Source: Minisyncoccia bacterium (GTDB lineage Bacteria; Patescibacteriota; Minisyncoccia; Phycocordibacterales; UBA2100). From it: a DNA stretch of 64,000 nt. The position numbers and the translations under genes were made by a program. Numbering within the stretch: the stretch's first letter is position 1; the number at the start of each line of letters is the position of its first letter. The DNA lies in contig JBAQUX010000017.1 in the NCBI GenBank assembly GCA_049297775.1, forward strand, positions 21,337 to 85,336, written 5' to 3'. Shown in pieces: positions 4,542-64,000 of the stretch. Under the pieces are notes generated by a model. It saw nothing but the letters and a program-made list of their open reading frames with translations. It was not told the origin of the DNA and made no database searches.

Positions 4542-4940
4542 TTAGCGCATAAGCAACCTTGGTCCAATCGTCATCGCAATGACGACAAGTGACAAGATTG
4601 TGACGCTTACGCCGAAAACCACCGCACCAGGCCTTTGAAGAGCAGGCCATCTACCGTCCGCCAACATCATGGCAGCACCAAACAAGGCAATGCAAACGCC
4701 GAACACGATAATGCCACTACTCAGGTACTTGGGGATGGGTCCCTTCCAGTGGTTCAACACAATCATCGCTCCGCCGATTAAGGCAAACACGATGCACTCC
4801 ATCGCAACATGCGCCCAAAACGAACCTTGCTCCCATATAGTAAATGTGAGAACAACGTAGCCGTAGGCGACTGCGAGGCAAATAAAAAGCAGGACCAGTA
4901 CCGCACGCACAGAATCACTCATGGCCATCTCCGGAACCAT
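4542..4940 (-). CDS. Hypothetical 4-TM membrane protein
   Basis: 132 codons, four hydrophobic helices, ATG start, own terminator. Confidence 0.5.
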   Translation of the reverse strand: MVPEMAMSDSVRAVLVLLFICLAVAYGYVVLTFTIWEQGSFWAHVAMECIVFALIGGAMIVLNHWKGPIPKYLSSGIIVFGVCIALFGAAMMLADGRWPALQRPGAVVFGVSVTILSLVVIAMTIGPRLLMR

Positions 4941-11125: not shown

Positions 11126-12277
11126 CTATTTGATAGCCTTCGCGACTGCTTTTGCTACACGTGGATCAAACGTCTTCGGAAGAATTTGCTTTGCGGTAGG
11201 TTTTGCAACGAGTTTTGCCAATGCCTCAGCAGCACGAACAAGCATACTATCAGTGATGTTGCGCACTTTATTATCGAGTGCGCCTCTAAATATTCCTGGG
11301 AATCCCAGTGAATTATTTACTTGATTTGGAAAATCAGACCGTCCAGTCGCAATAACAACTGCCCCGCCTCTTTTTGCCTCTTCAGGCATTATTTCAGGAA
11401 TTGGATTTGCCATGGCAAACACAATAGCGTTTTTATTCATAAGCTGTATCATTTCAGCAGTGACGGTGTTCCCTTTTGAAACACCAATAAAAACATCTGC
11501 TCCTAAGAGTGCATCAATGAGAGTGCCCACAACCAAATGCTTATTAGTTCGCTCAGCAAGAGATTTTTTATATCCGGTGAGGGTGATATCTGAAAGTGCG
11601 AGCACGCCCTTACTATCTACAACGAGCACATCGTGTATTCCGTACCCTAAAAGCATTTCTGTAATTGCAGCACCAGCGGCGCCAGCTCCAGCAACCACAA
11701 CCTTCACTGATTCTTTTTTCTTTTTTACAACTTTTAGCGCATTAATAAGCCCGGCAAGTACTACCATTGCAGTACCGTGTTGGTCATCATGCATTACTGG
11801 GATATCGAGCATTTCCTTGAGTCGTTTCTCGATTTCAAAACAACGAGGTGCCGCGATATCTTCAAGATTAATTCCGGCAAACGATGGTGCGATGTTTTTT
11901 ATTGTGGCAATGATTTCTTCAGTATCATGGGTTCCAAGGACGACAGGCACAGCATCAACATTTGCAAGTGCCTTAAAGAGATACGACTTCCCTTCCATCA
12001 CAGGAAGAGCACCTTCAGGACCAATATTACCCAACCCAAGCACTGCAGACCCATCTGAAACTACAGCAACAGTATTTCCGCGCCATGTGTAAGTATTTGT
12101 GTCTGCCTTGTTTTTTGCTACATGTGATGAGACAGCAGCAACACCAGGAGTGTACGCGAGGCGGAGCACTTCTTGCGTGAGTTTTGTCTTTGGCTTAATT
12201 TCAATTTTACCTCTATTTTTTTTATGAAATTCAAGCGCTAATATCTCAACTGATTTTTTATTTATTTTTTTCTTCAT
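11126..12277 (-). CDS. NAD(P)-dependent malic enzyme (short, MaeB-type catalytic domains)
   Basis: YTPGVAAVSSHVA motif and dinucleotide fold VVAGAGAAGAA. Confidence 0.85.
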   Translation of the reverse strand: MKKKINKKSVEILALEFHKKNRGKIEIKPKTKLTQEVLRLAYTPGVAAVSSHVAKNKADTNTYTWRGNTVAVVSDGSAVLGLGNIGPEGALPVMEGKSYLFKALANVDAVPVVLGTHDTEEIIATIKNIAPSFAGINLEDIAAPRCFEIEKRLKEMLDIPVMHDDQHGTAMVVLAGLINALKVVKKKKESVKVVVAGAGAAGAAITEMLLGYGIHDVLVVDSKGVLALSDITLTGYKKSLAERTNKHLVVGTLIDALLGADVFIGVSKGNTVTAEMIQLMNKNAIVFAMANPIPEIMPEEAKRGGAVVIATGRSDFPNQVNNSLGFPGIFRGALDNKVRNITDSMLVRAAEALAKLVAKPTAKQILPKTFDPRVAKAVAKAIK

Positions 12278-49436: not shown

Positions 49437-49527
49437 ATAATGAAGGCTCGTCAGCGTAAAAATTTCTGCGAACGTGGAATAGTATACAGATTGGCATCTG
49501 CATTTTTTTTTGCTATTCTACCCGTAT

Positions 49528-49598
49528 TGCTAGATCGTCTAATGGTAGGACAGCGCCCTCTGAAGGCGTTTATCTTGGTTCGAGTCCAAGTCTGGCAG
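49528..49598 (+). tRNA. tRNA-Gln (anticodon CTG), CCA not encoded
   Basis: Acceptor TGCTAGA/TCTGGCA with U1-A72, D arm GTCT..GGAC, anticodon stem GCGCC/GGCGT with loop CTCTGAA, T arm CTTGG TTCGAGT CCAAG, discriminator G. Confidence 0.75.
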
Positions 49599-51275
49599 CA
49601 AAGTAAACGAGTGAGCATCTAAACTGCTCTCACAGGCTTGTATAGAGCCAATTCTTTGTGGTTCTAACCTCGCATTAAGCGATTCTGCTACATTTGATAC
49701 GTTTTTAATGCCCAGTAGTGCTGCGGGCAAGCAAATACTGAGTTTTTTATCCTTGAGCGTGAGGTTCGAGCCAAGACCTTCAAGAACTTCTTTTTTAGCT
49801 TGCGGGTCGTTACTCGTAAGTTTCTCTTTTGCGTGTGTTGCAAAGTCTAAATATCCATTCGCAATGCCGGCCCAGTCGATTGCACGTTCGTGTACTTGTT
49901 GTGATGTATAGCGCACGTTGTTTAACTCCTTCTCTACTACACCTCGAGTTGCCAGTAGTTGCTCTGAACTAATCTCACCACTTGCTCGCATCATAACGAG
50001 GTTGTCCAGCTTTTTCATAAGTTCTGTCTCGCGCTTGCGGTTCTGCTGCACGATATGCTCTTGGTCATCAATTTCATTTCTGTGCAGATACTTTATTCCC
50101 TCGATTGCCCATTCATAGAAATCCTTCTCAATATGAATCTTTTGAACTTCCGCGAGTATCTGTGCTTCTAACTCTGCGGACTCCATGTACGGCTGCGCAC
50201 AGGCACCTCGCTTTTGCGTACAACGGTAATATGTTTTGTCTACAACCTTTAAACCTTTCATATCACTCGCATCGGTCCCACAGCGCGGGCACGCTGTAGA
50301 AATACGCATCGAAAACTTTTCTTTGCATTTGGGGCATCGAGCGTGCACTTTTCGTTCTGCCGTAATTGAACAGCCACATTCGCCGCAGTGTATATTTCCC
50401 CTAAATGGAAAAGTGTAAGTATTTATTTTTGTCGGCTTTCCACGCCTTCCAAGGAGTCTCTGGACCGTATTGAACTCGTATTCAGACACCATCACTTCAT
50501 GCTTCCCAATAAATTGGCCCTTATTGCCCTCTTCATCGTTCCACTCGAAATGCCCATAGTAGAAAGGGTTTGTGAAGATGTTGTAATAGCTTGCACGCGA
50601 ATAGATTTGACCACTCTTGTTCTTTAAGCCCAAAGCATCTCCCTCGCGCTTAATATCTGGCACAGAATACTGCCCAGAAATCATCTTCTTCCAAAGAACT
50701 TTCACAATTCCAAACGAATCAGACCGAACAATCTGATCTCCAAGCTTACCTTTGCCGCGGTGCGCGTAGCCTGGCGGCAATACAGACGCAGGGAACCATC
50801 CAAGTGAGGCTTTATATCTCTGACTGCGCTTTACGTCCGTACTTAAATCTTTTACATATTGATTCGACATGCCAAGCTCTACTGCCATCATCATGATATT
50901 GTCTGCAGGCTTGTAGACCCCAGAATGTGTTTGTATGTAAGCAATTTTTCCACTCTGCAACATGTGAATGATCTTCCCGCCATCTACAAAGTTTCGCGCG
51001 AGGCGATTTATCTTCCAACAGATAATCCCATTTGCCTCACCCTTTTCAATCCTTTTCAACATTGCATTAAAGGCGGGCCGTGCCTCTGGCTCTTTAGCGG
51101 ACTTGCTTTCCAAAATAACGTCGAGGATGTTTATCCCTAGTTTTAAAGCTAGGGACTTCATTTCACTTACTTGGTTATCAAGCGACAGGACCTGCTTATC
51201 CTCAGTGTCCGTAGACTTTCTTCCATACAGAAAGCACTTTATATCTCTACTTTTCAGGGGGTTAAAGTTGTTCAT
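49539..51275 (-). CDS. Large serine recombinase (integrase), 3' end overlapping tRNA-Gln
   Basis: N-terminal resolvase-type catalytic domain (FLYGRKSTDTEDKQ with catalytic Ser; ICWKINRLARN), recombinase domain, Cys-rich zinc-ribbon (CGECGC..CPKC..CPRCG), C-terminal coiled coil. Confidence 0.85.
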   Translation of the reverse strand: MNNFNPLKSRDIKCFLYGRKSTDTEDKQVLSLDNQVSEMKSLALKLGINILDVILESKSAKEPEARPAFNAMLKRIEKGEANGIICWKINRLARNFVDGGKIIHMLQSGKIAYIQTHSGVYKPADNIMMMAVELGMSNQYVKDLSTDVKRSQRYKASLGWFPASVLPPGYAHRGKGKLGDQIVRSDSFGIVKVLWKKMISGQYSVPDIKREGDALGLKNKSGQIYSRASYYNIFTNPFYYGHFEWNDEEGNKGQFIGKHEVMVSEYEFNTVQRLLGRRGKPTKINTYTFPFRGNIHCGECGCSITAERKVHARCPKCKEKFSMRISTACPRCGTDASDMKGLKVVDKTYYRCTQKRGACAQPYMESAELEAQILAEVQKIHIEKDFYEWAIEGIKYLHRNEIDDQEHIVQQNRKRETELMKKLDNLVMMRASGEISSEQLLATRGVVEKELNNVRYTSQQVHERAIDWAGIANGYLDFATHAKEKLTSNDPQAKKEVLEGLGSNLTLKDKKLSICLPAALLGIKNVSNVAESLNARLEPQRIGSIQACESSLDAHSFTLLPDLDSNQDKRLQRALSYH

Positions 51276-51328
51276 GGTTTTTGACTAGGTTGTTAAAGTA
51301 TACAAGAAAGTTTTGACTGGCGAAAATA

Positions 51329-51550
51329 TTACAATTTCCCCGAAACATTTTTCACAGAACTTATAAAGCGCATTAACCTCAATCCCTCTTCCTGAGCACA
51401 TTCATAGGATATATCTACACCAAAGTGTAACTTGTATAAACTCATGTATTTGAGTATATGTTCCTTTGGTAATACCATGTTTGTTTTGAAAACTTCTCCC
51501 TGCTTCTGGAGTATCAAAGGAATACGGTGAGGGAAGCTGTGTGTGGGCAC
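51329..51550 (-). CDS. Hypothetical small protein (73 aa)
   Basis: Only ORF between integrase start and a 340-nt ORF-free stretch; weak support. Confidence 0.25.
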   Translation of the reverse strand: MPTHSFPHRIPLILQKQGEVFKTNMVLPKEHILKYMSLYKLHFGVDISYECAQEEGLRLMRFISSVKNVSGKL

Positions 51551-51889
51551 AGATTCTCTTGTGTTGTCATTTTCTTCTCCCTGCCCCTGGATACACCATT
51601 AGGTTTCCGGCGATTTAGAAGACATATCAGCATTGTCTCCGTTGGGAAGTTTCTCTGTTTATGCCGCGTGTCAGTTTGGATTATATGCTGTGTTTATGGC
51701 GGGCATACGAGTACCACAAACACCAAACTGATCTATTTTAAAGTGCTCATCCCTCGGTCCAAGCACTTACGATGTTGACAACATCACGTATATTTCACTC
51801 GCTACACACACATCGCGTAGTAATGCGAGGTCCTTTAGCCTTACTCCTGCAAGGCATGGTCAAAGAATATATTTTGCTAGGTTAAAAAA

Positions 51890-51925
51890 ATATGCAAAAT
51901 AAGGTCGCGACCTTATTTTGCATAT
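51890..51925 (-). terminator. Perfect 36-nt palindrome (atatgcaaaataaggtcgc|gcgaccttattttgcatat) overlapping the stop of 51913..52665; T-run on the minus strand
   Basis: 18-bp perfect stem without loop spacer, followed by TTTTTTT on the minus strand. Confidence 0.55.
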
Positions 51926-52665
51926 TTCCTTATTTCGTCCCTTATTTCCTTGCGTATTCTTAATATATGAGCCTGCTCATACTTTTTCCCAAACTTTGAT
52001 TTCACGCTGTCACTAAGTTTACCGATACCCAACTCGACATTCTTCCGAATATGCTCCCTCAACTCTTGGGATGATTCCTTTGGCCTTCGTGCTATTCCGA
52101 GTTTCACCTTAGGATTTTTGTGATATTTTTGCATCGGCAAAATCTCTCTCTGGTACTGATTCTTTACAAAACTAAGAATATCTTCCTTTGACACATATGG
52201 TGAAATGAGAATGGCGACAGGGTGATTTTGTACATTATGGCGAAGACCGTCTTCAAAAACTTGCTTCTCCTCTTTGTCCCAGTGCGGACCATTCAACTCT
52301 AACTGTATATTTACAGTTTGGATAAGTCCGTGCATTTGCAAATCTAGAGAGCCGCTCGGAAGCCAATCGTTGTAACATACATAATAAGAAAAAGTTTCAA
52401 CCCATATTGGCTCGAGCTTGAGCTTTTCGAAAACAATCTTTTCTATATCCTGGTAGAATTGTTTAGGAAGCGATGGTGTAGTTATGTTTTTCTCCTTACC
52501 GGGGAATCCTTTAACGCGAGCAAATGTTTCGTACCCACCCAACGGGATACCGTACTTTTTTCTTATCTTCCTAATTGATTCTGAAAGAGGGCGTTTTTCA
52601 ACCGTACTCATTAAATAGCTCCACACTTTTTGGTTTGGGTCTTGCATACGGATTGTGTCACTCAC
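51913..52665 (-). CDS. Hypothetical protein (250 aa, Lys-rich C-terminus)
   Basis: Clean ORF with strong terminator; no recognisable family. Confidence 0.5.
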   Translation of the reverse strand: MSDTIRMQDPNQKVWSYLMSTVEKRPLSESIRKIRKKYGIPLGGYETFARVKGFPGKEKNITTPSLPKQFYQDIEKIVFEKLKLEPIWVETFSYYVCYNDWLPSGSLDLQMHGLIQTVNIQLELNGPHWDKEEKQVFEDGLRHNVQNHPVAILISPYVSKEDILSFVKNQYQREILPMQKYHKNPKVKLGIARRPKESSQELREHIRKNVELGIGKLSDSVKSKFGKKYEQAHILRIRKEIRDEIRKYAK

Positions 52666-52897
52666 AATTTTAGTCCCTATATGATAAAATAACCAGTACG
52701 CCCTGGAAGGGGTGGCACCTAACCCTATTCATCTCACGATGAGCAGGTATGGTGCACAGTCGCAAAAAGCATAGAAAACCCGTCATTGGGGTGCTTTTTG
52801 CGCCGTACAGGGAAACTTGTATGAGGGAGAAATCCCTACCTTCAGTGGCGGGTTTTTTGAGTGCCACGTTTTGCTTATCAATTTTCATTACAAAAAC

Positions 52898-53094: not shown

Positions 53095-53478
53095 GTGAAA
53101 GACCCCGACTCGCTTTTATATGAATATTTGCAAGCATGCGCTGACCTATTACATGCGCAGTCTGTGAAAGATAAGTTCAAATGCAAACAGTATCTAGTCA
53201 TAACGACAATCCTCTTTTTTGCGGTCGCATGTATTGTGTTCGCAGTGGTTGACCGCTTATCATTCTGGGACCTAAGCATAATCATACTGCCCCTCTTATT
53301 TTTGGGCGCACCCCTTCCGTTCGAAGCTCACAGCAGCTATAGCCATAACAAATCCAATGCACTGGAAATTGAGGGTATATTGAGCAAATGGCAACGCAAA
53401 TATTCAGACGAAAGGATTACAGCAGAAATACATATCCTCAGGAAAGAAGCCGAGTCCATACTAAAAAAATATGAATAA
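53095..53478 (+). CDS. Hypothetical membrane protein (2 TM)
   Basis: 127 codons, 8-nt overlap with the next gene (operon). Confidence 0.45.
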   Translation: MKDPDSLLYEYLQACADLLHAQSVKDKFKCKQYLVITTILFFAVACIVFAVVDRLSFWDLSIIILPLLFLGAPLPFEAHSSYSHNKSNALEIEGILSKWQRKYSDERITAEIHILRKEAESILKKYE

Positions 53479-54211
53479 CGAATCCGGACTAGTGGCACTG
53501 ATGAAGTACGTTGAAGGCTCGGGCATGTGTCTCGAACACACCTGCACCACCTGCGGCAACCAAGACTTCCGCACCGCTCTCGCTTTTGTTGCCTATGGCC
53601 ACAGTCCCGCGAATAAACAAGACTGGACAGAGACAACGAAAAGCCATGACAGCACAGCGATACCGCTTTTGTATAGAGGTAACACGCAAACCCACCTACA
53701 AAACAAGCTGCTAGAGGCGATAAAAGGCACTCTCTGGCACGAAACTGTGCGTGTAGCACCAAAGTCCTGGTTCGATATGATGCGCATCATTCTGGACAGT
53801 TTTAGGGGTAATAAACGAGCAAAGGATGTCTCAATGGTTATCGCACGTGACATGCTGCAAGTTGCCGTACCCGGGACCGAACTGCATACACAGCTTGAGC
53901 GAGTCGCAGCAGTTGATACTGCTGATGTTCTCACAGGCACGCTACTGCTACTGTTTGCGCGAGAGGACAGAAGAAACGACACGCCGGAGAGCATGAATAG
54001 ACTCGAAGAGATAAACAAGCGCGCAGGCTCGCTATCACTTGCAGATGTAGAGATTCTCACCGATGCGGAGGTTTTGAGTATGTCGGTCCCACGCCCGGGG
54101 CACCCGACACATCGTGGTTTTATGCTCAATCCCAAGTATTTCAAAGACCAAGAGCACTTCTCGCAGATTACTCACACGCTCATGCAGCGACTAATGCGTA
54201 TCAAGCACTGA
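53471..54211 (+). CDS. Hypothetical protein with CxxC cluster (CLEHTCTTCGN)
   Basis: 246 codons, no recognisable family. Confidence 0.5.
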   Translation: MNNESGLVALMKYVEGSGMCLEHTCTTCGNQDFRTALAFVAYGHSPANKQDWTETTKSHDSTAIPLLYRGNTQTHLQNKLLEAIKGTLWHETVRVAPKSWFDMMRIILDSFRGNKRAKDVSMVIARDMLQVAVPGTELHTQLERVAAVDTADVLTGTLLLLFAREDRRNDTPESMNRLEEINKRAGSLSLADVEILTDAEVLSMSVPRPGHPTHRGFMLNPKYFKDQEHFSQITHTLMQRLMRIKH

Positions 54212-54440
54212 TTTTGTACGTAACCGTCACAACTCAGACAATTCCTTCAGGCCTGGTCTTTTCCGTCACTTTCCGTCATGACGGATTGCAACTTAACTTT
54301 TACACTTCTACGGCTTAAGTCTTGGAGGCTGGGTGACGGATTCTCCCACAAAACCTTCAGTCCTAGCGAATAATCTAAGCTGTATGTGCAGATTCGGCTC
54401 GTGTAGTTGTATCGTCTCGATTTAGGTCTATACTTGCCCT

Positions 54441-54659
54441 ATGTATATCCTCACACAGTACTTCATAACCTTCGGTTGGGCACTTACCGCCGCCCTCTCT
54501 ATGGCTGTTGCTATTAGCATTGGTCTTAAGATATTCACCTACCTTTCTCCTATTGATGAATGGGGAGAAATAAAGAATGGCAACATGGCTATGGCTGCAA
54601 TTCTTGTCGCCACCATTCTCGGTATGGCATACGTAGTAGCTGCTACCATTAACGCATAA
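54441..54659 (+). CDS. DUF350-like small 2-TM membrane protein
   Basis: 72 codons, two hydrophobic helices separated by EWGEIKNGN loop. Confidence 0.45.
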   Translation: MYILTQYFITFGWALTAALSMAVAISIGLKIFTYLSPIDEWGEIKNGNMAMAAILVATILGMAYVVAATINA

Positions 54660-54661
54660 CT

Positions 54662-54985
54662 ATGAAAGCTGTGGTGTGTCTCACTCTTGTACTTCTTGTC
54701 GCTCCCGCGGTTACATTTGCACACCCGGGTAGAACAGATGCTAGTGGGTGCCACACTAACAAGAAGACCGGTGAGTATCACTGTCACGGCACTACCCCAG
54801 ATGTTCGCACCGCCCGGACCGAGGCACGATCAGAAGCTCGTAATATCTATGACAAGGATTGCAAAGACTTCCATACACAACAAGAGGCGCAGGACTTCTT
54901 TATTTCACAGGGAGGTCCCACTTCAGACTCACATGACTTGGACCGAGATCATGATGGTGTGGCATGTGAAGACTTACGGAAATAG
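54662..54985 (+). CDS. Secreted protein with C-terminal Excalibur calcium-binding motif (DLDRDHDGVACE)
   Basis: Signal peptide; DxDxDGxxCE motif at C-terminus. Confidence 0.6.
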   Translation: MKAVVCLTLVLLVAPAVTFAHPGRTDASGCHTNKKTGEYHCHGTTPDVRTARTEARSEARNIYDKDCKDFHTQQEAQDFFISQGGPTSDSHDLDRDHDGVACEDLRK

Positions 54986-54987
54986 CC

Positions 54988-55497
54988 ATGAAGGGTATGT
55001 ACATAGTCGTAGGTGTTTTGGTATTGCTCGCAATGCTTTCCGGCGGCACGAACACTGTTGAAAAAGCCGGTGAAGCAGAGTCTGAGGCACATTCATTTGC
55101 AGTAAGCACACCTACCGCAACCCCGAGTACATATAACAACTACACGGGAGAGTACGATGAGCCCGAAGACATAACAATAGATCGTGTTGATGCAATATAT
55201 GATCATTGGGACGAGATCCGTGAGTATGTTAATGGCTCAGAGACAATAGAGGCATGTTCCTCCTCAAGTGGTAACTGTTATGACTTGGATGCTGATATAT
55301 CATCCGGCTCTATAGAGCAGATAGGCTTCGAGAATGGAGGATATCTCTACTTTTCAGCAGAGATTGATTCAGATGGAAATGCATCTGACACTGATGTGCG
55401 AGGTGACAGTTGGGATTTTACATTAGATATGGACTCTTCTATCGTTGATGATGCCGTACAGGAGTGGGCAGACTATGAAGGGTATGAGGTGGAGTAG
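54988..55497 (+). CDS. Secreted acidic (Asp/Glu/Ser-rich) protein
   Basis: Signal peptide, highly acidic low-complexity body. Confidence 0.5.
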   Translation: MKGMYIVVGVLVLLAMLSGGTNTVEKAGEAESEAHSFAVSTPTATPSTYNNYTGEYDEPEDITIDRVDAIYDHWDEIREYVNGSETIEACSSSSGNCYDLDADISSGSIEQIGFENGGYLYFSAEIDSDGNASDTDVRGDSWDFTLDMDSSIVDDAVQEWADYEGYEVE

Positions 55498-55499
55498 TC

Positions 55500-57791
55500 T
55501 CACATATTGTCAACCGTTGTCGCTTCATTTGCCAACGAGATACTCCCAGGACCTTCATCTGTTGAATCTTCCTTATCTAAAAAGAGCAACTCTCTTTCGT
55601 TCAATTTAGCTATGACTGGCTGTTTCAACTTCAATGCCTTTCCGATTATTATCGCATGTCTATCATCAAGTGTGGGAAGAATATTAGAGAAATCTGAACC
55701 GATATAGTTTTCTAGAAACTGTTTACCAGTGTCATCGAATACTCGCAAAGCGAATATTGTATTGCACTGATTCAAAATACTTTTACTTATATTTGCAGTG
55801 CGCTGAGTAACTACCATACTACCAAGACCGTACTTTCTTCCTTGCAATATAACTCTCGCCGTACCATTTGCAGCACTCTTGTCACCCTCATTTGCAACTG
55901 AGTTCCATTCTGGTATCAACGAATGAGCCTCTTCGTACACCAAAAATGCTTTTGCCTTTTCGGTTAAACCAGAGTCTCTACAGATTTCTAAAACTGTCTC
56001 GGACAATATCCGCGTAATCTCTGCAACAGACATCTCAGAGAATGGTGCGTACATCGACCAATTTTTCCCATCAAGTTGTCCGTTTTTTACATTCTCTTCT
56101 TGCTTCAGCGCAGTGATCTCCTCTGGATTTACTACTAAAACTCTTTTGGTGTTTTCTGTACTAAAAAATGCACCAAGCGCAGACCTCAGACATTCTTTGA
56201 GCAATTCAATGTCTCCACCGTCATGCTTAGAAACTTTTGGGATAGTTCTTGTTGTTTGCGTCGCAAGTTCGCTATTTAGTGTGGAAGTATCGAAAACCTA
56301 AAGTGCATCTTCTTGCAGGTATCGAGGTAAGCCGTGACTTTTATTCGCATACTGTCCTGTAATATCTATACATATTATTTTTGTCTCAGTTTTAGCACAA
56401 AGCTTTTGTATAAGTTCAAATGTTAAACATGACTTTCCTACACCAAGAATACCCAAAATAGCAGTATTATGTGTCACCAACGCATCGTAATCAGCAATTT
56501 GCATAACAAAATCTGTCCCCGGAAGTCTGCCGATACTATCTCCAGGTTTTATTTCCGCATGATTTTCCTGCGCGAATAGAGGCGCATACCCGTCCGGAAC
56601 CCATTTTGCCGTTAGTATTTCCTTTTTCTCTACGCTATATGTGCCAAGTTTTCTTGCGACACCCACAAGATATGAGTCGTTGTCGTGCCCAATGAGGTCA
56701 TCTCGTTTAGTAAATCCATCAAGTACTTGATATAGAACGTCTACGTTTCTAACCATAGAGCTCACAATCATCCCTTCTGTGATTTGAGAGCCCACATCGT
56801 TATTAAATATTCTAAACTGGACTTTATTAATATGTGAGTCTGGTAGAACATACCCTACGAGTGACTTACGGTTTTTGTATAACTCTGTGTTTTGTATGCG
56901 CCCCAGAGTTTCTGAATCAATATCCGCAGCATTCATTTTATATGCCTTATGGCTCGAGGTAATGTTTGTAGTTTCTGATTCAAAAACTTCACTGGTTAGC
57001 TCAGAAAGTACATGAACTAAAATCCAATTTTTGTCCAGTAGCATATTTTTTTGTACGACCACACCAAAACTCTTCTCCCCACGCTCATGAATCCTAACAA
57101 GGTCGCCCAAAGACACACTTTCTTGTGTATTCCTTGGATCTATTTCAACCTTAAATACGTATTTACTCTCATTACCAATTACTTTTCCTAAATATGTTTC
57201 TCGATCCCAAAGATTTCTCAAAAACTTAAATATGCCATCAATGACGTTTTCAACCAGGAAGCCTGAGATGAATACTACCCAAAAAGAAAAGAGTAAAATC
57301 TGGGCCACTTTATCTGATTGAAAATATGAGAATGTGGTGCTCAAGTAGATAACCGAATAAGCGACTTTTGATCTACCGAAATAAGTTAAGATGTTGCCGA
57401 AGATGTCAAAATATTTTGAATGTTCATATTTCCTAACAAGTAGTATGTAAAGGACGGAAAGTCCAACAAGCATTGAGGCGCACCCAATGAGAAAATCTCG
57501 CCCAATATATGCGTCAATGTCGTTTATGCCTAAGAGGAAGAGCAGGACACCAGTTGCATTAACCAGAACATCTGTAACTTTTGTAAAAAAAGGCTCGGCA
57601 ACATATGCGCCAAAAATAAGGAGTAGTCCGCCTGACACAAATATTTTGTTATACTGTGTTGAACTATCCAATATTGCCCAGAAATCTCCACCGGTTAGGT
57701 ACGTCAAGATTCCTAGTAGTACAAGTATATACACAACCACAACTAAAATCCTTTCTTTGAATCCCAGCTCTATTTTGGCTAGTGAAGACAT
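55500..57791 (-). pseudogene. Membrane-anchored HerA/FtsK-superfamily P-loop ATPase interrupted by a single in-frame TAG (56298-56300)
   Basis: N part (56298..57791): six TM helices, HAS-barrel-like segment, Walker A GILGVGKS. C part (55500..56204): Walker B FLVYEEAH and VVTQRTANISKS (TQRP-like) motif. Both parts are in the same frame; 31 sense codons lie between the TAG and the called TTG start. Confidence 0.7.
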
Positions 57792-57879
57792 GTCGAGAAG
57801 TATATCACTTTGCTTTATTTTTCGCCTTGGATGATTTTTCTACACTCATCCGTCCGAGAGAATAACGATCCTAACCTCC

Positions 57880-58284
57880 CTAAGGGTAGAGACTCGCGTA
57901 GTATTGTGCAATCTTCGTCATATCCGACTCAAAACGTTCCTTATCATCTTTGAATAAGCTCTGGGAACCAAACAGCGGTGAATCTGGCTCTGAAAAAACG
58001 TAAAAATCCCCCTGTACTGCTTCGCAGTGTGGGCATACATTTGCCCAATATTCACTATCACTCATTTGTGTGTAGCTTACTTTTACAGTTTTCGGTATTG
58101 GCTCAGGAGGTACTGATGGCTCATCTGCCCACTCATCTTCAGGCCACACGAACGCAACCATCTCCCCTTTACATTTCCAGCATTTATAGGGAGCGTAGCG
58201 GTATTTATATCCTTCAGGTAACGACACCTTAGTTGCCTCAGATATACGATTTATTACCAATAGAAACTGTTCGAGATTTTCCAT
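57880..58284 (-). CDS. Small zinc-ribbon protein (CWKC ... CPHC)
   Basis: 134 codons with two CxxC pairs; co-oriented between the 1011-aa gene and the ATPase. Confidence 0.55.
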   Translation of the reverse strand: MENLEQFLLVINRISEATKVSLPEGYKYRYAPYKCWKCKGEMVAFVWPEDEWADEPSVPPEPIPKTVKVSYTQMSDSEYWANVCPHCEAVQGDFYVFSEPDSPLFGSQSLFKDDKERFESDMTKIAQYYASLYP

Positions 58285-58333
58285 ATTTTATGATAGATCA
58301 CTGAAACTATTGCTTGCAAATAGATTTATTGCT

Positions 58334-61300
58334 CTAGTCTTTCTTAACAATATCGACCAGCGGCCAAAATGGCTCACTGCCTGCGGCGACTAAATCATTC
58401 ACAAGATCTCTCACAGCAGGCCTCAATTTTTCATTAGAGTAGAGGGCTGTAAACGCCTCTTCCCATGTTTCGTCAATATAGACCCACCGCAATTCATCGT
58501 TGCGTAACTTGTTATCACTTCCAAGGAAGTGTAGACGAATGATTGTAAGCGTATCTTCCGGTGCTGCGTTTGCCAGCAATGGGAGTGACTTGGTCATACC
58601 GTGATCCCAACTGAGGAGTCCCGAGGTCTTCTCCATAGTTGCTCTCAGGTGCTTTGCTAAATAAGGTAAGGATATCACACCCTCCTCCGCATCAACCCAA
58701 AGCCCAAACGACGAGAGTATTACTCGACTTTCAATATGCTCATTTGCCCAAGTCCAAAATGCGAGCAAACGTTCGAGGAAGAAGTGGTTGTTTTTTGTTT
58801 GTTCTTCTATCCATTTTTTGGCACCTGACCTTGAGAAGGCCTGCCCGCCAATAAACTTAATAAACTCTGAGAGTCTTTCTTCATTCTGTGTGTCAATAAA
58901 CCTCTTTAGAATCTCACTATTCTCCGGTGAAAAATTGTCGTAGTGCATGAACGCCAAACCGAAGTGCGTAGCAAGGCCTTCGTCTAGATCACGGAAGTAT
59001 TTGCGCTTCGTGTACCGATCTTTATTCAACTCCATTAGGTAAGAGTATTCGGGCTGCATTGCCGTGAACACGTCGTACCACAGACCAGACGTTAAATATC
59101 CCTCCATAGCGGCAAGGTACAAATCGTTATTATTTCTATCGAAAATCATCCCAAAATGCTCTTGCATCCATTTCGGGTCTCGTAGGTAAAATGTTGCGAG
59201 ATACTTACCAAACAAGAATCTAACCGCACGAGTCTTCTCATTCTGAGCTAGCAGTACGTAGATAGACTTCACATCATCGCTTAAACGTATTTCGTCAGTC
59301 TTCTTACCTTTCTTTTCCTGCAACTGCACGTCCTTATCCACAAACATTGCAAGTGCCTGAAAGGCACGGCCACGAACAGAGTTTATAGCCTTTGTAAAAG
59401 GATCTGACTCCGAATACTCCTCTTCACCATCGTACTTAGTTCTGAGCTTAGGAATCTCTTCCTCTGGCGTAGGATCACTACTGACAAGCAGATATGCAAG
59501 GGTCTCGATGAAAAATTGCCTATTCTTTTCAAAACTGACAGGCTCACCGTCATACCTAAGCAGGTGGTGCAATAAATCTGTCAATGCCACACAAACCCCA
59601 TCCCAGTCAGACAAAAAGAAATCCTGGTTATTCTTATCACGAGTAACCTTAGAAAAAGGATTCGATTTACCAGATTCAATTATTTTTTGAATAAAAGTTA
59701 TTACACTGCTCTGTTGGTCAGGAGTGAGCTTGCCGTCTTTTTTTAAGTAACCAATAACACCCCAAATATATTTGTATGTATAGCCGGGGTCGATACTTTC
59801 CCGATCAAAGAAGGATGCGGCATTGTCGAGGTATTCAGACGGTCTCTCCGCAAAATCCTCTTCAATTTCTGCCGCAACCCCAGAAGCACTAATTGGCCTC
59901 AGGAAGTTTTGACTTGTATCTTTAATATTTTCAGGCCTAAGACGAGTCTTAAGCAGCTCGATCACTTCGTTAAGTGGCTTACCCTTTACAGACTCTGGTG
60001 CCTGTGGAATAACAGTGCCACCTGTCACTCCACTCGACATTGGTGTAGGTATGTAGTTTGGGTCTAACTTCCAACCTAACCCTTGCATTTTTGCCTTCAG
60101 CTCTTCGTTTAAATGACTGTGAATACATGACGCAATGCGAGAGGCACGAATAAGCGAAAATCTTTTTTCGTCCTCTTTTTCATCAGCGGGAAAGAGCTTG
60201 AACAGGCCATCTATATATTCACTTTGTTGTTCATGAGACAGAAAGTTGAAATGTCGCTTTAGCAAAGTTGCATACTCAGCGCCATACATTAAGTCGTGCA
60301 GCTCTTCCTTATTCTTTACGTATAGTATTCGCTGAATTGCCTCCACGATTACATCCTTAAGTGCATCTGGAGTCAAAGACATCAGTGAGAGCTTTAGTCT
60401 CCATGTTGTCTCACTTTCAGTCAAAGCTCTTGGAAACTGTTCGTATACGTGCACAATATTTAGAGCAAAAGCATTCTCAACAGCCTTCTTATACAGCAAC
60501 TTGTAAACTGCAAAAAGACTTCTGATATCTTCCTGCGAGTAGCTCTCTATATTTAATACATCCAGTTCAAAAAAGTCTACATCGGAAAAATAAAGCCCAT
60601 CATCGAGTCCTGATTTTGATTCTTGAGGATACATTTCCATTGCGAGTTTTACTACACGGTTGAGTGCATCATGCACAATATTCAAGCTCTGCTCAGGTTC
60701 ATTTGTGGAGAGTAGTGCTTCCACAACTCCCGTTCGTTTAAGATCATCTACATAAAACCAGCGTCGTGAATACGAATGTTCAACGTCGCTATTCTTCTCG
60801 ACACCTTTTACCGTAAGGACAATTTGTGCCAACTTGTTGATGGTGGTATCGTCACCCGCACTCTTTAAAGTCTTAAACATTTCATCATACTCAAATCCCC
60901 AAGTTCTGTAAGCTGCAAGCCAGTGCACCCAATCTTCGGCAACCATTTTTTCAACAAACTTTGCAAGATTTTCTGGTGAAAACTTAGTGGCAATACTGCG
61001 GAAGCGAAGCGGGATATTCACATTTACATTTCCCTCTTTCAGAGGTAGCGATAGAATGTGCTTTGCAACCAAATCTTCATCAAACTCAACCATTCTTTCT
61101 AAAAAACGCATCTCGGGAGAGAAATATGTTTCTTTACCTATTGTATCAAGACTGAACTTTTCAATTGTCAGAAACTGATTTTCAATCAACCACAACAGCC
61201 ACTCTTTGCCAATTGTCGAAAAAATAAATCTTCTAGCATCTAAACTTGGGTTAGAAAGTTGAACAAACAATTTCGCGGCGGAGTTACTGTTAAAGTCGCC

Positions 61301-61369
61301 GTTCACGATCTTTGTAATCTCATTATGAATCTGAATTGGATCAGTTGCCATATTGGTTGTTTTCTTCAT
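58334..61369 (-). CDS. Large hypothetical protein (1011 aa, predominantly alpha-helical, no recognisable catalytic motif)
   Basis: Uninterrupted 3-kb ORF, 29-nt overlap with the upstream 250-aa gene. Confidence 0.6.
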   Translation of the reverse strand: MKKTTNMATDPIQIHNEITKIVNGDFNSNSAAKLFVQLSNPSLDARRFIFSTIGKEWLLWLIENQFLTIEKFSLDTIGKETYFSPEMRFLERMVEFDEDLVAKHILSLPLKEGNVNVNIPLRFRSIATKFSPENLAKFVEKMVAEDWVHWLAAYRTWGFEYDEMFKTLKSAGDDTTINKLAQIVLTVKGVEKNSDVEHSYSRRWFYVDDLKRTGVVEALLSTNEPEQSLNIVHDALNRVVKLAMEMYPQESKSGLDDGLYFSDVDFFELDVLNIESYSQEDIRSLFAVYKLLYKKAVENAFALNIVHVYEQFPRALTESETTWRLKLSLMSLTPDALKDVIVEAIQRILYVKNKEELHDLMYGAEYATLLKRHFNFLSHEQQSEYIDGLFKLFPADEKEDEKRFSLIRASRIASCIHSHLNEELKAKMQGLGWKLDPNYIPTPMSSGVTGGTVIPQAPESVKGKPLNEVIELLKTRLRPENIKDTSQNFLRPISASGVAAEIEEDFAERPSEYLDNAASFFDRESIDPGYTYKYIWGVIGYLKKDGKLTPDQQSSVITFIQKIIESGKSNPFSKVTRDKNNQDFFLSDWDGVCVALTDLLHHLLRYDGEPVSFEKNRQFFIETLAYLLVSSDPTPEEEIPKLRTKYDGEEEYSESDPFTKAINSVRGRAFQALAMFVDKDVQLQEKKGKKTDEIRLSDDVKSIYVLLAQNEKTRAVRFLFGKYLATFYLRDPKWMQEHFGMIFDRNNNDLYLAAMEGYLTSGLWYDVFTAMQPEYSYLMELNKDRYTKRKYFRDLDEGLATHFGLAFMHYDNFSPENSEILKRFIDTQNEERLSEFIKFIGGQAFSRSGAKKWIEEQTKNNHFFLERLLAFWTWANEHIESRVILSSFGLWVDAEEGVISLPYLAKHLRATMEKTSGLLSWDHGMTKSLPLLANAAPEDTLTIIRLHFLGSDNKLRNDELRWVYIDETWEEAFTALYSNEKLRPAVRDLVNDLVAAGSEPFWPLVDIVKKD

Positions 61370-62093
61370 GTTCTGATTCTAGTATCAAGGAGTACATTTG
61401 CTCGTCGATTTTATTGAAGACATGCTCAGTCAACTCCTTGTGACTTTCAAGCTTGTTATATCCATTGATCAAATCTTTAAACTTATTTAGACTCTCAGAG
61501 GTAGGGAGTAAGCATTCCTTTCTTGCAATTTCTCCTAGGAAACTTATTGCACTAACATAGTCCTTTCTATCTACACATCCACATGCACTCTTATATGATG
61601 TAATCGAGGAATTGTAACTGTAGATCTGTGGCATCTTTTCAATTATGTAGCTACGTCGCCCGCTTACTTTAAATGCTTCAGGCTCTGCACTTAGACTTCC
61701 AATACCACTTGACACAGGGCCGAAAAAAATACTTTCAATTGGGCCATTAACAACTGTTTGATGCACAGTCGATTGTTCGTTTGCAGAAGCGACTGCACTG
61801 GCCTTACTGAGGTCGGCATTGCCAGCTCCTATTGTATCTTCTCTTCTAAAAAAGCTCGTTGCGAGGCGATGAAAACCTGTGCCCATCAAGAACGTCGCGA
61901 ACAGCGTCATTGCGTATTGATAAGTAAAATCGTCTGCTTGAAAATCAGGGAAGAGAATATTATGTAGAAATGGGTATGCGATTGCAAAAGTCTGCCCGAA
62001 GACAAGTTCACCAGCACTAACAAGCCAGGGTGCAGAATCAACCGATTGATTCGCATCTGAGAACATTTTTTTAACTGATTCGAGTGCATTCAT
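61341..62093 (-). CDS. Hypothetical protein (250 aa, one hydrophobic segment)
   Basis: First gene of the minus-strand operon; preceded by a 380-nt AT-rich region with a palindrome. Confidence 0.5.
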   Translation of the reverse strand: MNALESVKKMFSDANQSVDSAPWLVSAGELVFGQTFAIAYPFLHNILFPDFQADDFTYQYAMTLFATFLMGTGFHRLATSFFRREDTIGAGNADLSKASAVASANEQSTVHQTVVNGPIESIFFGPVSSGIGSLSAEPEAFKVSGRRSYIIEKMPQIYSYNSSITSYKSACGCVDRKDYVSAISFLGEIARKECLLPTSESLNKFKDLINGYNKLESHKELTEHVFNKIDEQMYSLILESEHEENNQYGN

Positions 62094-62194
62094 CGATGGT
62101 CTGACTTAGATACACATTATACCACGCGCATAATACAGGTTCTAACCTTCCTAAGTTCTGCCAGCACATGAGCGGAGCGAAAGTGATGACAGAA

Positions 62195-62216
62195 GTTATC
62201 AAATAGTTTTGATAAC
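62195..62216. promoter_or_regulatory. Perfect 9-bp inverted repeat with 4-nt spacer (GTTATCAAA tagt TTTGATAAC), candidate operator
   Basis: In the intergenic region upstream of the 61341..62093 operon. Confidence 0.35.
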
Positions 62217-62270
62217 GCCTTGGACTCGAAGACCGGAGCGATGTTTTTGTTTGCAGTACTCTGCAAGGCA

Positions 62271-62292
62271 AAAACCGCGAGGTCCGGTTTTT
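62271..62292. terminator. Bidirectional terminator hairpin (aaaaccgcgaggtccggttttt)
   Basis: Stem aaaccg/cggttt flanked by A-run and T-run, downstream of the 62476 gene. Confidence 0.4.
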
Positions 62293-62475
62293 GGAAAAGT
62301 GAGTCAACACTTTTACCAAAAAGAGTCGAGTCTGGCAGCCAAGTTTAGTTAATAGAAGATAAAAAAAACGTTTATAAATAGTGTTTTTTATTAGAAAATT
62401 ATTTTTTCACTTTTACAATAATTTTTCATTACTGCCCAACTTTTGATACCCTGACAACAATTATCAATTTTATAA

Positions 62476-64000
62476 TTAATACTTGTTGTTAGCAGGAAAC
62501 AACTTTCTTGCTTCTGCCAAGTTAACTCTGAATTTATAGCCGTGCTTTTCTAGTAGCCCAAGTAGCTTTGCACCATCAAGCAATGTTATTGGTTTGTTTT
62601 GAACGAAAGCATAAGCATCTGCTCCAAAAGTACTAGTGGTAACAAGTATTCCTCTTGATGCACCTTCATGAGCGACAACTGCGACCAAGTCTCTTACAGC
62701 ACTCACATCTACAGTGTTTGTATATCTTTTAGCTTGAATTACATACTTACCACCCCTAATAGGGTCAGGATTAAAGACAATAGCATCGACGCCTTTATCA
62801 CGGCTCGATTGAGTTAATTTAATCTCTGTTCCTTCTTCAGAAAACTCTTTTTGGAAAAGCTCAGCAATAAGGTTTTCAAAATCCTGCCAATCCATTGATG
62901 CAAGGTTGGTTTGCGCATCTAGTGTTCCAATCACTTCCTTGGTCTTAATAAACCTCTTATCCTTTTTATCCAAAGACATTACAGGAGACACAGGAATAAT
63001 ATCTATCAATTTACCTGCAGACTTTCCTTTAAGACCTAAGAATGCCGACAACGGATCGAGCTTAGATAACTTAAGTTGAACTATTTGCTCTTTGGTTGTT
63101 GCAAGTGAAGCTGTATATGTACGAGTTAAATTACCTGTCGCAGGATCATCAAATTCTACCCAGCCATTAAGGACAAGGAGTTTAATTTTATCTGCATCAT
63201 CGTTGCGAAATATTTCATATGCAATTCGCAGCATAACAGAAGGATGTATATTCGGAATTAATTCCTTACCTTCTTTAATCGTGAGAGGTTTCTCAACTGT
63301 CTCCCTTTTGAGATGGACTTCCTTTAGGACTTGATTGTGTACAACATCAGGCAACTTTATTTCGACAATTGCAATACCCTCGTTAACGTCAAAGTCTATA
63401 TCCCAAACTTTAGGAATAGATGCTGGAACAGTGATGTTATCAATGACAAAGTTAAATCGTTTGATAACGTCTTCTTTTTCGCCTTTTTCATAACCACTTC
63501 TTATAGCTTTGAAGAAAGCTTTCGCTTCATTTCCTTCTTGAATATCCTTCTCGATTGTCTTATTAAACTCTGCTATTTCATTATTTAAGGCATAAATTGA
63601 AGCAAGGTTTGTAAGCTTGTTGCTCTCAACCTTTGAAGAAAACGACGGGAAAGGCTTGGTCTTATGCGGTTGTTTAACCAAATCTTTTTCAAGTTCATCC
63701 CAAGGGTGCAAATCGGCAGAAAGTATTAGAGGTATATCCTCAATACAAAGACTACCCTTCTCTTTTCTCTGTCGAGTTGATTTTAACTGTGAAGAATCTT
63801 TTCTTTCTGCTTTAACCTTGGCAAATTCTGCTCTATACCTTTTTACGTTACGCTCAACTTCTTTTATTGTTTCTTCCTGCTCCCATCTTTCCATTCTTAA
63901 TTTTCTTTCCTTTTCTGCTCGCTCATTATCCTCGGCTTGGTTTCGAGCTGTAATTATATCTTTTTCTGCTTGTAATTCTTTTTTTCTGTCAGCAAAGGCA
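62476..64000 (-). CDS. Mrr-cat (restriction-endonuclease-like) domain protein with long coiled-coil/charged N-terminal region; 5' end beyond window
   Basis: C-terminal MDWQDFENLIAELF...GVDAIVF...VIQAKRY...RGILVTTSTFGADA matches the Mrr N-terminal catalytic domain pattern. The reading frame stays open upstream of the called ATG (63894) to position 64000. Confidence 0.7.
   Translation of the reverse strand, partial: AFADRKKELQAEKDIITARNQAEDNERAEKERKLRMERWEQEETIKEVERNVKRYRAEFAKVKAERKDSSQLKSTRQRKEKGSLCIEDIPLILSADLHPWDELEKDLVKQPHKTKPFPSFSSKVESNKLTNLASIYALNNEIAEFNKTIEKDIQEGNEAKAFFKAIRSGYEKGEKEDVIKRFNFVIDNITVPASIPKVWDIDFDVNEGIAIVEIKLPDVVHNQVLKEVHLKRETVEKPLTIKEGKELIPNIHPSVMLRIAYEIFRNDDADKIKLLVLNGWVEFDDPATGNLTRTYTASLATTKEQIVQLKLSKLDPLSAFLGLKGKSAGKLIDIIPVSPVMSLDKKDKRFIKTKEVIGTLDAQTNLASMDWQDFENLIAELFQKEFSEEGTEIKLTQSSRDKGVDAIVFNPDPIRGGKYVIQAKRYTNTVDVSAVRDLVAVVAHEGASRGILVTTSTFGADAYAFVQNKPITLLDGAKLLGLLEKHGYKFRVNLAEARKLFPANNKY

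Follow-up and report, generated by a model that had tools for sequence, protein, structure and literature searches.

A large serine integrase gene that ends inside a tRNA-Gln gene in a Minisyncoccia genome: probable insertion of an island into the tRNA T-loop

Why should the gene of a large serine recombinase end inside a tRNA gene? The question is raised by a stretch of 64,000 nucleotides (nt) from a Minisyncoccia bacterium (Patescibacteriota; GenBank assembly GCA_049297775.1, contig JBAQUX010000017.1, positions 21,337 to 85,336), here called the window, in which an integrase gene on the reverse strand (49539..51275; 578 amino acids, aa) runs antisense into the gene for tRNA-Gln(CTG) on the forward strand (49528..49599). 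Tyrosine integrases target tRNA genes as a rule, serine integrases only rarely; the characterised large serine integrases use attachment sites of ~40-50 bp that share a central dinucleotide only, and their targets are protein genes or intergenic DNA. We propose, with a probability of roughly 0.8, that this open reading frame (ORF) encodes the integrase of a ~15-20 kb Minisyncoccia (Patescibacteria) island that was inserted into the T-loop of tRNA-Gln(CTG) and rebuilt the 3' end of that tRNA.

The tRNA gene was predicted by ARAGORN and scores 59.1 bits with the Rfam tRNA model, against a cut-off of 29. A promoter-like site, TTGGCA-17-TATTCT (49491..49519, +; a consensus match only), lies directly upstream of it on the host side, and the only long ORF to its right is that of the integrase, which runs from 51275 down to 49539 on the reverse strand. 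A first-pass annotation of the window, made from the letters and their translations, had placed the integrase stop at 49539 within tRNA-Gln and estimated an overlap of about 60 nt covering the last ~20 codons. The ARAGORN boundaries and the sequence itself agree with this: the overlap is 61 nt and comprises codons 559-578 (LLPDLDSNQDKRLQRALSYH) together with a TAG stop. Read directly from the sequence, these codons and the stop are the reverse complement of tRNA-Gln positions 12 to 74, and the TAG is the complement of a CTA in the D-loop.

Judged by its domains, the 578-aa protein is a large serine recombinase. It matches the Pfam families Resolvase (PF00239, E=5e-17) and Recombinase (PF07508, E=2e-7), while its match to Zn_ribbon_recom (PF13408) reaches 25.1 bits, slightly under the cut-off of 25.3; it also matches the integrase family PHROG 95 (E=3e-55). 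The best match in the PDB is SPbeta SprA/YokA, a distant one (E=6e-8) that covers the N-terminal half only. In an alignment of 30 homologues, R19 and S21 (in an “RKS” context) are kept in at least 90%, and the zinc-ribbon cysteines C297, C300, C314, C317, C329, C332, C352, and C359 are invariant. The ORF is unbroken and retains every invariant catalytic and zinc-binding residue, and its product would be expected to use serine-recombinase chemistry, with a 2-bp staggered cut. The protein thus has the same resolvase catalytic, recombinase, and zinc-ribbon domains, and the same invariant cysteines, as the integrases of SPbeta (SprA/YokA), A118, TP901-1, Bxb1, and phiC31. The AlphaFold2 model places long helices between residues 366 and 501, which may correspond to the long helical, coiled-coil-like insertion of those enzymes.

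The overlap with the tRNA is not a matter of chance, given its recurrence among the homologues. A protein search returned thousands of integrase homologues, and 80 genome loci encoding such homologues were fetched, with the stop codon and the tRNAs located in each. In 35 of the 80, the integrase gene has a tRNA, predicted by ARAGORN in antisense orientation, at its 3' end. The two genes overlap by 11 to 189 nt in 32 of these 35 tRNA-ended loci, and the ORF stops before the tRNA in the other three; the overlap length spans -69 to +189 nt, and the position of the stop depends on the tRNA species. In about six more loci an antisense T-arm is present but escapes ARAGORN, owing to an intron in tRNA-Asn or to a contig end. 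The targeted tRNAs belong to six species, namely Asn(GTT), Tyr(GTA), Gln(CTG/TTG), His, Lys, and Ile, and the tRNA-ended loci all come from Patescibacteria or from other small-genome and candidate lineages. The nearest relatives of the window integrase (55-59% identity; loci L001, L149, L150, and L153) are all in tRNA-Gln. Across the family, the tRNA species shifts with the integrase clade and the junction position stays constant. The reading of this locus as an insertion, already put forward in the first-pass annotation, thus stands: the overlap is conserved as a property of a mobile element whose tRNA and cargo both vary, rather than through vertical inheritance. As a separate observation, the integrases of loci L050 (~4630-4800) and L080 (~11600-11760) end in tRNA-Asn genes that ARAGORN missed, and this antisense tRNA-Asn is interrupted after the anticodon region, apparently by a group I intron; group I introns of this kind have been described for Patescibacteria (PMC13011429).

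Where exactly does the element begin within the tRNA? Three relatives have both element ends inside the fetched DNA: L149, in the complete Kaiserbacteria genome CP070993.1 (tRNA-Gln(CTG); element of 8.7 kb; direct repeat of 19 nt), L006, in the Kaiserbacteria metagenome-assembled genome (MAG) JANPCG010000013.1 (tRNA-Tyr; 8.9 kb; 22 nt), and L045, in the Nomurabacteria MAG JACKGC010000002.1 (tRNA-Asn; 7.8 kb; 21 nt). The integrase of L149 is 59% identical to that of the window, and no recombinase other than the integrase was found in L006 or L149. In all three relatives the direct repeat is exact and extends from the 3' terminal nucleotides of the tRNA into the T-loop; in other words, the element supplies the 3' part of the tRNA, as had been suggested for the window. 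The same junction is seen in mini-elements of 140-190 nt located in tRNA-Cys (L064) and tRNA-Leu (L004), and the junction identity ends within the T-loop in all five cases. In L149, this identity ends after ACTCG (antisense strand), which places the exchange at or 3' of C56, and the crossover is confined by sequence to the segment from T-loop position 56 through the tRNA 3' end. Orphan tRNA-Gln 3' fragments that start at (G)TTCGAG are also found in four metagenome contigs (L103, L107, L122, and L126). In another contig, L129 (1780-2040), a tRNA-Gln has a duplicate of its 3' ~55 nt placed 125 nt after it; this duplication is longer than the T-loop junctions and different in type, and it may have been left behind by an element of some other kind.

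By analogy with these relatives, the crossover in the window is predicted at ~49581-49583, that is, at C56-A58 in the T-loop sequence TTCGAGT. Because direct repeats are present in L149, L006, and L045, the tRNA-Gln of the window is predicted to be a chimera, made of host sequence up to ~49580 and of ~19 nt of element sequence at 49581..49599; the latter would be the element-borne tRNA 3' end (the P' arm and expected direct repeat), equivalent to the 19-nt repeat of L149. Integrase residues 559-565 would then fall within the tRNA 3' end carried by the element, and residues 566-578, with the stop, within the host tRNA. With these last 13 codons and the stop coming from the host tRNA, the integrase ORF would be a hybrid across the junction. 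The earlier suggestion that the overlap is an attachment region shared between element and target accordingly holds for the stretch of ~19-22 nt that begins in the T-loop and runs to the tRNA 3' end, and fails for the rest of the 60 nt. The accompanying statement that serine integrases do not normally duplicate target sequence has to be revised for this family, which keeps an identity with its target as long as a half-site, unlike the textbook identity of 2 bp. A U4-G69 wobble pair in the acceptor stem of the window tRNA was considered as a mark of the chimera and rejected, as contig L120 has the same pair with no integrase match downstream.

How would such an element work? We suggest that, in this family, the element attachment site lies at the extreme 3' end of the integrase gene, so that the non-coding strand of the last part of the gene would carry the 3' end of the target tRNA, from the T-loop to the discriminator (19-23 nt), usually together with a terminator-like hairpin. 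Recombination in the T-loop would join the host promoter and the 5' two-thirds of the tRNA to the element's copy of the 3' end, leaving an intact tRNA for which the element would also provide a terminator, and the original 3' end of the host tRNA would be moved to the far side of the island. The integrase frame would cross the junction into the host tRNA and continue until a chance stop, which in the window would be the TAG opposite the D-loop. The T-arm, as a natural inverted repeat, would be suited to serve as the core site for a binding dimer; the symmetric T-arm is also known as a target of tyrosine integrases (PMC7192596). In such a scheme, the element and host half-sites are identical for ~17-19 bp from the centre, and the tRNA-side junction therefore looks like an unoccupied site. 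Immediate re-excision might be prevented by sequences that border the repeat on its outer side, by the phased repeats described below, by a small 49-aa protein, or by the structured LOOT RNA.

That the region to the right of tRNA-Gln is a foreign island with variable cargo, and that the tRNA/integrase junction is one of its edges, is supported by gene content and by a second assembly, in agreement with the boundary first proposed. Housekeeping-like genes (HAD hydrolase, FAD oxidases, DUF2177, and others) lie to the left of tRNA-Gln and defence genes on the island side, where the rightward order is integrase, 49-aa ORF, 250-aa ORF, LOOT RNA, several unknown ORFs, HerA-like ATPase, Dsr1-like protein, and Mrr-type endonuclease. 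The assembly GCA_021733565.1 (L081) encodes a 100% identical integrase protein at the same junction, with 99.4% DNA identity over window positions 49475-52867. The 250-aa ORF (51913..52665, -), part of the conserved island core and with no family match, is 98% identical in L081, and genes for 127, 246, 107 (Excalibur), and 169 aa (53095..55497, +) are also common to the two islands. Next to these, the variable defence cassette of the window (55498..62130, -; PADLOC) is replaced in L081 (911-5140) by an OLD-TOPRIM/AAA and UvrD pair that is Gabija-like, and a common flank (62130-62338) follows the swapped cassette. In the window, the cassette contains a HerA-like ATPase (PADLOC) divided into two ORFs on the reverse strand (55500-56204 and 56298-57791), with the N-terminal part and its Walker region separate from the C-terminal part; this split could be a frameshift or a real two-gene arrangement. 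A Dsr1-like protein of 1011 aa (58334-61369, -; PADLOC), a 134-aa ORF, and a further 250-aa ORF, both also on the reverse strand, complete the cassette. The gene for the Mrr-type (type IV) restriction endonuclease (62476..64000, -; Pfam and PADLOC) runs off the window, and the full protein of 649 aa is seen with the Logan contig L157, through which 10.4 kb beyond the window were gained. Host-like genes (EngB-like GTPase, EamA transporter) resume in L157 at 3-5 kb past the window, which gives the island a size of ~15-20 kb. PHROG matches in the island are limited to the integrase and part of the HerA/terminase-like ATPase, and a scan of viral contigs yielded only 12 weak loci and thus no evidence that the element is a known phage.

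Several results weigh against the account given above. In 37 of the 80 loci, mostly of the Bacteroidota type, no tRNA is recognisable at the equivalent position, and tRNA targeting is therefore not valid for the whole integrase family. In the window, no second tRNA-Gln 3' end was found with the 3' 21-mer at up to six mismatches, nor a second copy of either tRNA-Gln half, and a repeat search of 47-64 kb returned chance-level repeats only. No copy of the tRNA 3' end was found in the 24.8 kb to the right of the junction (14.4 kb of the window and 10.4 kb of L157), nor a distal end block in the window or in the L157 extension; the 10.4 kb of the latter contain no tRNA fragment, end block, tRNA, or LOOT RNA. 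The other junction, which the first-pass annotation had proposed to seek beyond 64000, was thus not found over this distance. As no distal repeat or block was found, the crossover in the window was not directly observed and rests on analogy; the distal junction of this copy would have been lost, be unrecognisable, or be different in kind, and this is the main weakness of the case. A metagenome scan with the tRNA-Gln 3' 21-mer gave no orthologous empty site, that is, none of the uninterrupted tRNA-Gln sites by which the insertion was to be checked; ~45 intact tRNA-Gln genes with an identical 21-mer and unrelated downstream DNA were found, all in other organisms. In favour of the account, the left flank is matched with 100% identity by two Logan contigs, each from a different run, and these stop at 49596 and 49600, at the tRNA's 3' end. 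Such ends are the branch expected in an assembly graph if the outer edge of the repeat is where a second allele, either vacant or with another occupant, departs, and they hint, indirectly, at an allele polymorphism. Is the window copy, then, a fixed and decayed island, with a relic junction, a lost distal attachment site, and no remaining mobility? We regard this as somewhat unlikely. It would explain why neither a distal repeat nor an end block was found in the 24.8 kb although host-like genes resume there, and it is in keeping with the split HerA-like cargo gene and with the degenerate second T-loop-core repeat of the window (GTTCTA). On the contrary, the integrase ORF is intact with all of its invariant catalytic and zinc-binding residues, a 100% identical integrase is found in a second assembly with different cargo, and in two assemblies the sequence breaks off precisely at the tRNA 3' end, as a diverging allele would lead one to expect. 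A decayed island would in any case concern present activity and is compatible with the proposed origin of the overlap.

The overlap might also be nothing but compact gene packing, if the whole tRNA-Gln were element-borne and the true boundary lay to the left of 49528. Mobile elements often carry tRNA genes, and the element contig L081 includes the tRNA and 53 nt on its left; nevertheless, we consider this very improbable, given that L149, L006, and L045 repeat only the 3' 19-22 nt distally, with the identity stopping in the T-loop, that the contigs with the housekeeping-like left flank run to the tRNA 3' end and then stop, and that the tRNA species varies with the integrase clade at a constant junction position. 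Alternatively, the overlap may be functional: the level or directionality of the integrase might be regulated by a C-terminus that is exchanged as the element passes from the integrated to the excised state, or by antisense pairing of the integrase mRNA with the tRNA transcript. The ORF crosses the junction in 32 of the 80 loci, so that the tail necessarily differs between the two states; in L006, the frame of the excised form would read a different tail of ~30 aa; and the integrase gene converges at its 3' end with the tRNA, to which it is complementary there. The properties of the tail nevertheless make this reading improbable. In the window, residues 539-578 (49542..49661, -) have a predicted local distance difference test (pLDDT) score below 50 in the AlphaFold2 model, and tail length and sequence vary among homologues. 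In the alignment of 30 homologues, the C-terminal tails resemble antisense translations of tRNA 3' halves, as in the motif “DSN”, encoded by GAT TCG AAC, the complement of the T-loop. The tail, predicted to be disordered, is not conserved as protein; the overlap ranges from -69 to +189 nt with a stop that depends on the tRNA species; and in three loci the ORF stops before the tRNA. The tail (residues ~539-578) is probably unstructured and without function, and, because of its low pLDDT and a length that varies with the tRNA species, we read the overlap as a by-product of the position of the attachment site rather than as a functional peptide.

The elements share several companions besides the integrase. 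On the sense strand of the tRNA and within the integrase ORF, the window has a weak terminator-like hairpin with a T-rich tail (49635..49659, +). A hairpin of this kind with a T run occurs within 110 nt after the tRNA in 29 of 38 loci, as against 11 of 38 control windows deeper in the ORF, and its antisense translation is the semi-conserved protein motif “EPKK...KQG”. Farther upstream of the integrase gene lies a LOOT RNA (Rfam RF03000; 52716..52837, +), which matches the full-length model at 74.3 bits against a gathering score of 46.4. In ~19 loci a LOOT RNA lies 0.2-5.7 kb upstream of the integrase, for the most part on the opposite strand (e.g., L149 7896-8018, L006 4166-4287, L045 7835-7956, and L001 6811-6926); none of the 37 related loci lacking a tRNA at the integrase 3' end has one. 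This small RNA is a recurrent part of these integrase elements. Directly upstream of the integrase is the conserved 49-aa ORF (51329..51478, -), which by tblastn precedes the integrase in 23 loci of Patescibacteria and Bacteroidota. Its alignment consensus is L.EE.I.EFQ.LYKKHFG..IS.E.A.EEGL.L.RF; it has no Pfam or PHROG match, and its product might serve as a regulator or a directionality factor.

The last part of the integrase gene also contains a pattern of short repeats. Within the last 330 nt of the integrase genes, the hexamer TCGAAC (integrase strand) shows a 44-fold enrichment, and T-loop-core repeats are placed at fixed distances of 83 and 186 nt from the T-loop, with the 103-nt step between them present in 37 loci and the 186-nt spacing in 23 of 38 relatives. 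In the window, the hexamer in the T-loop itself is at 49578-49583, the second repeat, a degenerate GTTCTA at a spacing kept in relatives, at 49661..49666 (+), and the third, GTTCGA, at 49764..49769 (+). The third repeat coincides with the Ser-Asn codons of a GSNL motif, and this Ser-Asn pair is coded TCG AAC in 29 of 31 cases, a codon fixation that points to a constraint on the DNA and not on the protein. In the Bacteroidota loci, the pattern is 103 + 87/88 nt. As a further side observation, the Flavobacteriia-type loci L010, L011, L014, L017, and L032 have a conserved GCATAGAGAAA in common, with a hairpin after it, which lies beyond the integrase end and ~35-50 nt after the third GTTCGAAC motif; GCATAGAGAAA and its hairpin may be a non-tRNA target or the other arm of the element.

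At the far end, the complete elements open with a conserved block of ~150 nt, which folds as a long rod on either strand. A small palindrome stands at its junction and a T-loop motif in inverted orientation at +72 to +74; a further GTT(C/A)GAACC is placed at ~+189. Examples of the block are at 2746-2932 and 1729-1917 in L006, 3793-3977 in L045, and 2928-3140 in L149; in L006 and L045 it also includes the acceptor-side repeat in inverted form, in agreement with the tRNA of each. The block alone makes up the mini-insertions of 140-190 nt in the T-loops of tRNA-Cys (L064, 2222-2400) and tRNA-Leu (L004, 16084-16290). A tRNA, a transfer-messenger RNA (tmRNA), and a known RNA family were considered for it and rejected, as neither ARAGORN nor Rfam gave a match. 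From these features one can speculate, as a rather doubtful extension of the scheme, that the attachment region, instead of being a simple site of 50 bp, measures ~380 bp and consists of five helically phased T-loop-core repeats, at -186, -83, 0, ~+73 (inverted), and ~+189, with an inverted copy of the tRNA 3' end. Because the element and host half-sites are identical, directionality would in that case be set by the accessory sites and by the 49-aa protein or LOOT RNA.

How do these elements compare with known systems? Set against the characterised serine integrases, they differ in that the target is a tRNA T-loop, with 19-23 bp of identity that rebuild the tRNA, and in that the site overlaps the coding end of the integrase itself, with T-loop-core repeats at fixed spacing. 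Attachment sites within one of the element's own genes are found in the SSV1-type integrases and in the integration-dependent immunity of mycobacteriophages, where integration alters the frame that crosses the site. Those systems are built on tyrosine integrases, and the exchanged part is functional there (a split integrase or a degradation tag), whereas here it is a tail predicted to be disordered. The tRNA islands and phages of tyrosine integrases (P4-like; Islander/TIGER surveys) have the same adjacency of integrase and tRNA and the same element-borne tRNA 3' part, and the distal direct repeat of L149, L006, and L045 is alike; the enzyme family differs.

Serine integrases were described in 2020 as “not known for targeting tRNA genes”, their use of tRNA or tmRNA genes being called unreported, with 14 of 297 cases predicted and proof needed (PMC7192596), and a large survey of serine integrases in 2022 makes no mention of tRNA (PMC10083194). 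Among the Prochlorococcus tycheposons, 27 of 937 have a large serine recombinase (bioRxiv 10.1101/2020.12.28.424599). Tycheposons are also cargo and defence elements at tRNA genes, and they differ in their hosts and in having mostly a tyrosine recombinase; as far as the preprint was searched, neither an overlap of integrase ORF and tRNA nor LOOT RNA is described there. Our literature search found no account of tRNA-targeting serine integrases in Patescibacteria or of the tRNA overlap of this clade, and no link between LOOT RNA and integrases. The window is apparently one case of a widespread and hitherto undescribed clade of serine integrases that targets the tRNA T-loop in Patescibacteria.

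Serine integrases are valued in genome engineering for their short sites and one-way reactions, and they are thought to avoid tRNA genes. The present clade appears to target the most conserved part of the tRNA and to switch between tRNA species, and it may thus provide enzymes with predictable, near-universal landing sites as well as a test case for how new specificity evolves in serine integrases. LOOT RNA, so far just a conserved structure, is now placed in a defined mobile element; if the ~380-bp attachment region were real, this orphan RNA would gain a role in the life cycle of the element, and the control of recombination would be nearer to the accessory sites of small resolvases or the arm sites of lambda than to the logic of a coiled coil and a recombination directionality factor. 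For the Patescibacteria, with their small genomes, such elements would represent a main route by which anti-phage defence genes are gained and exchanged.

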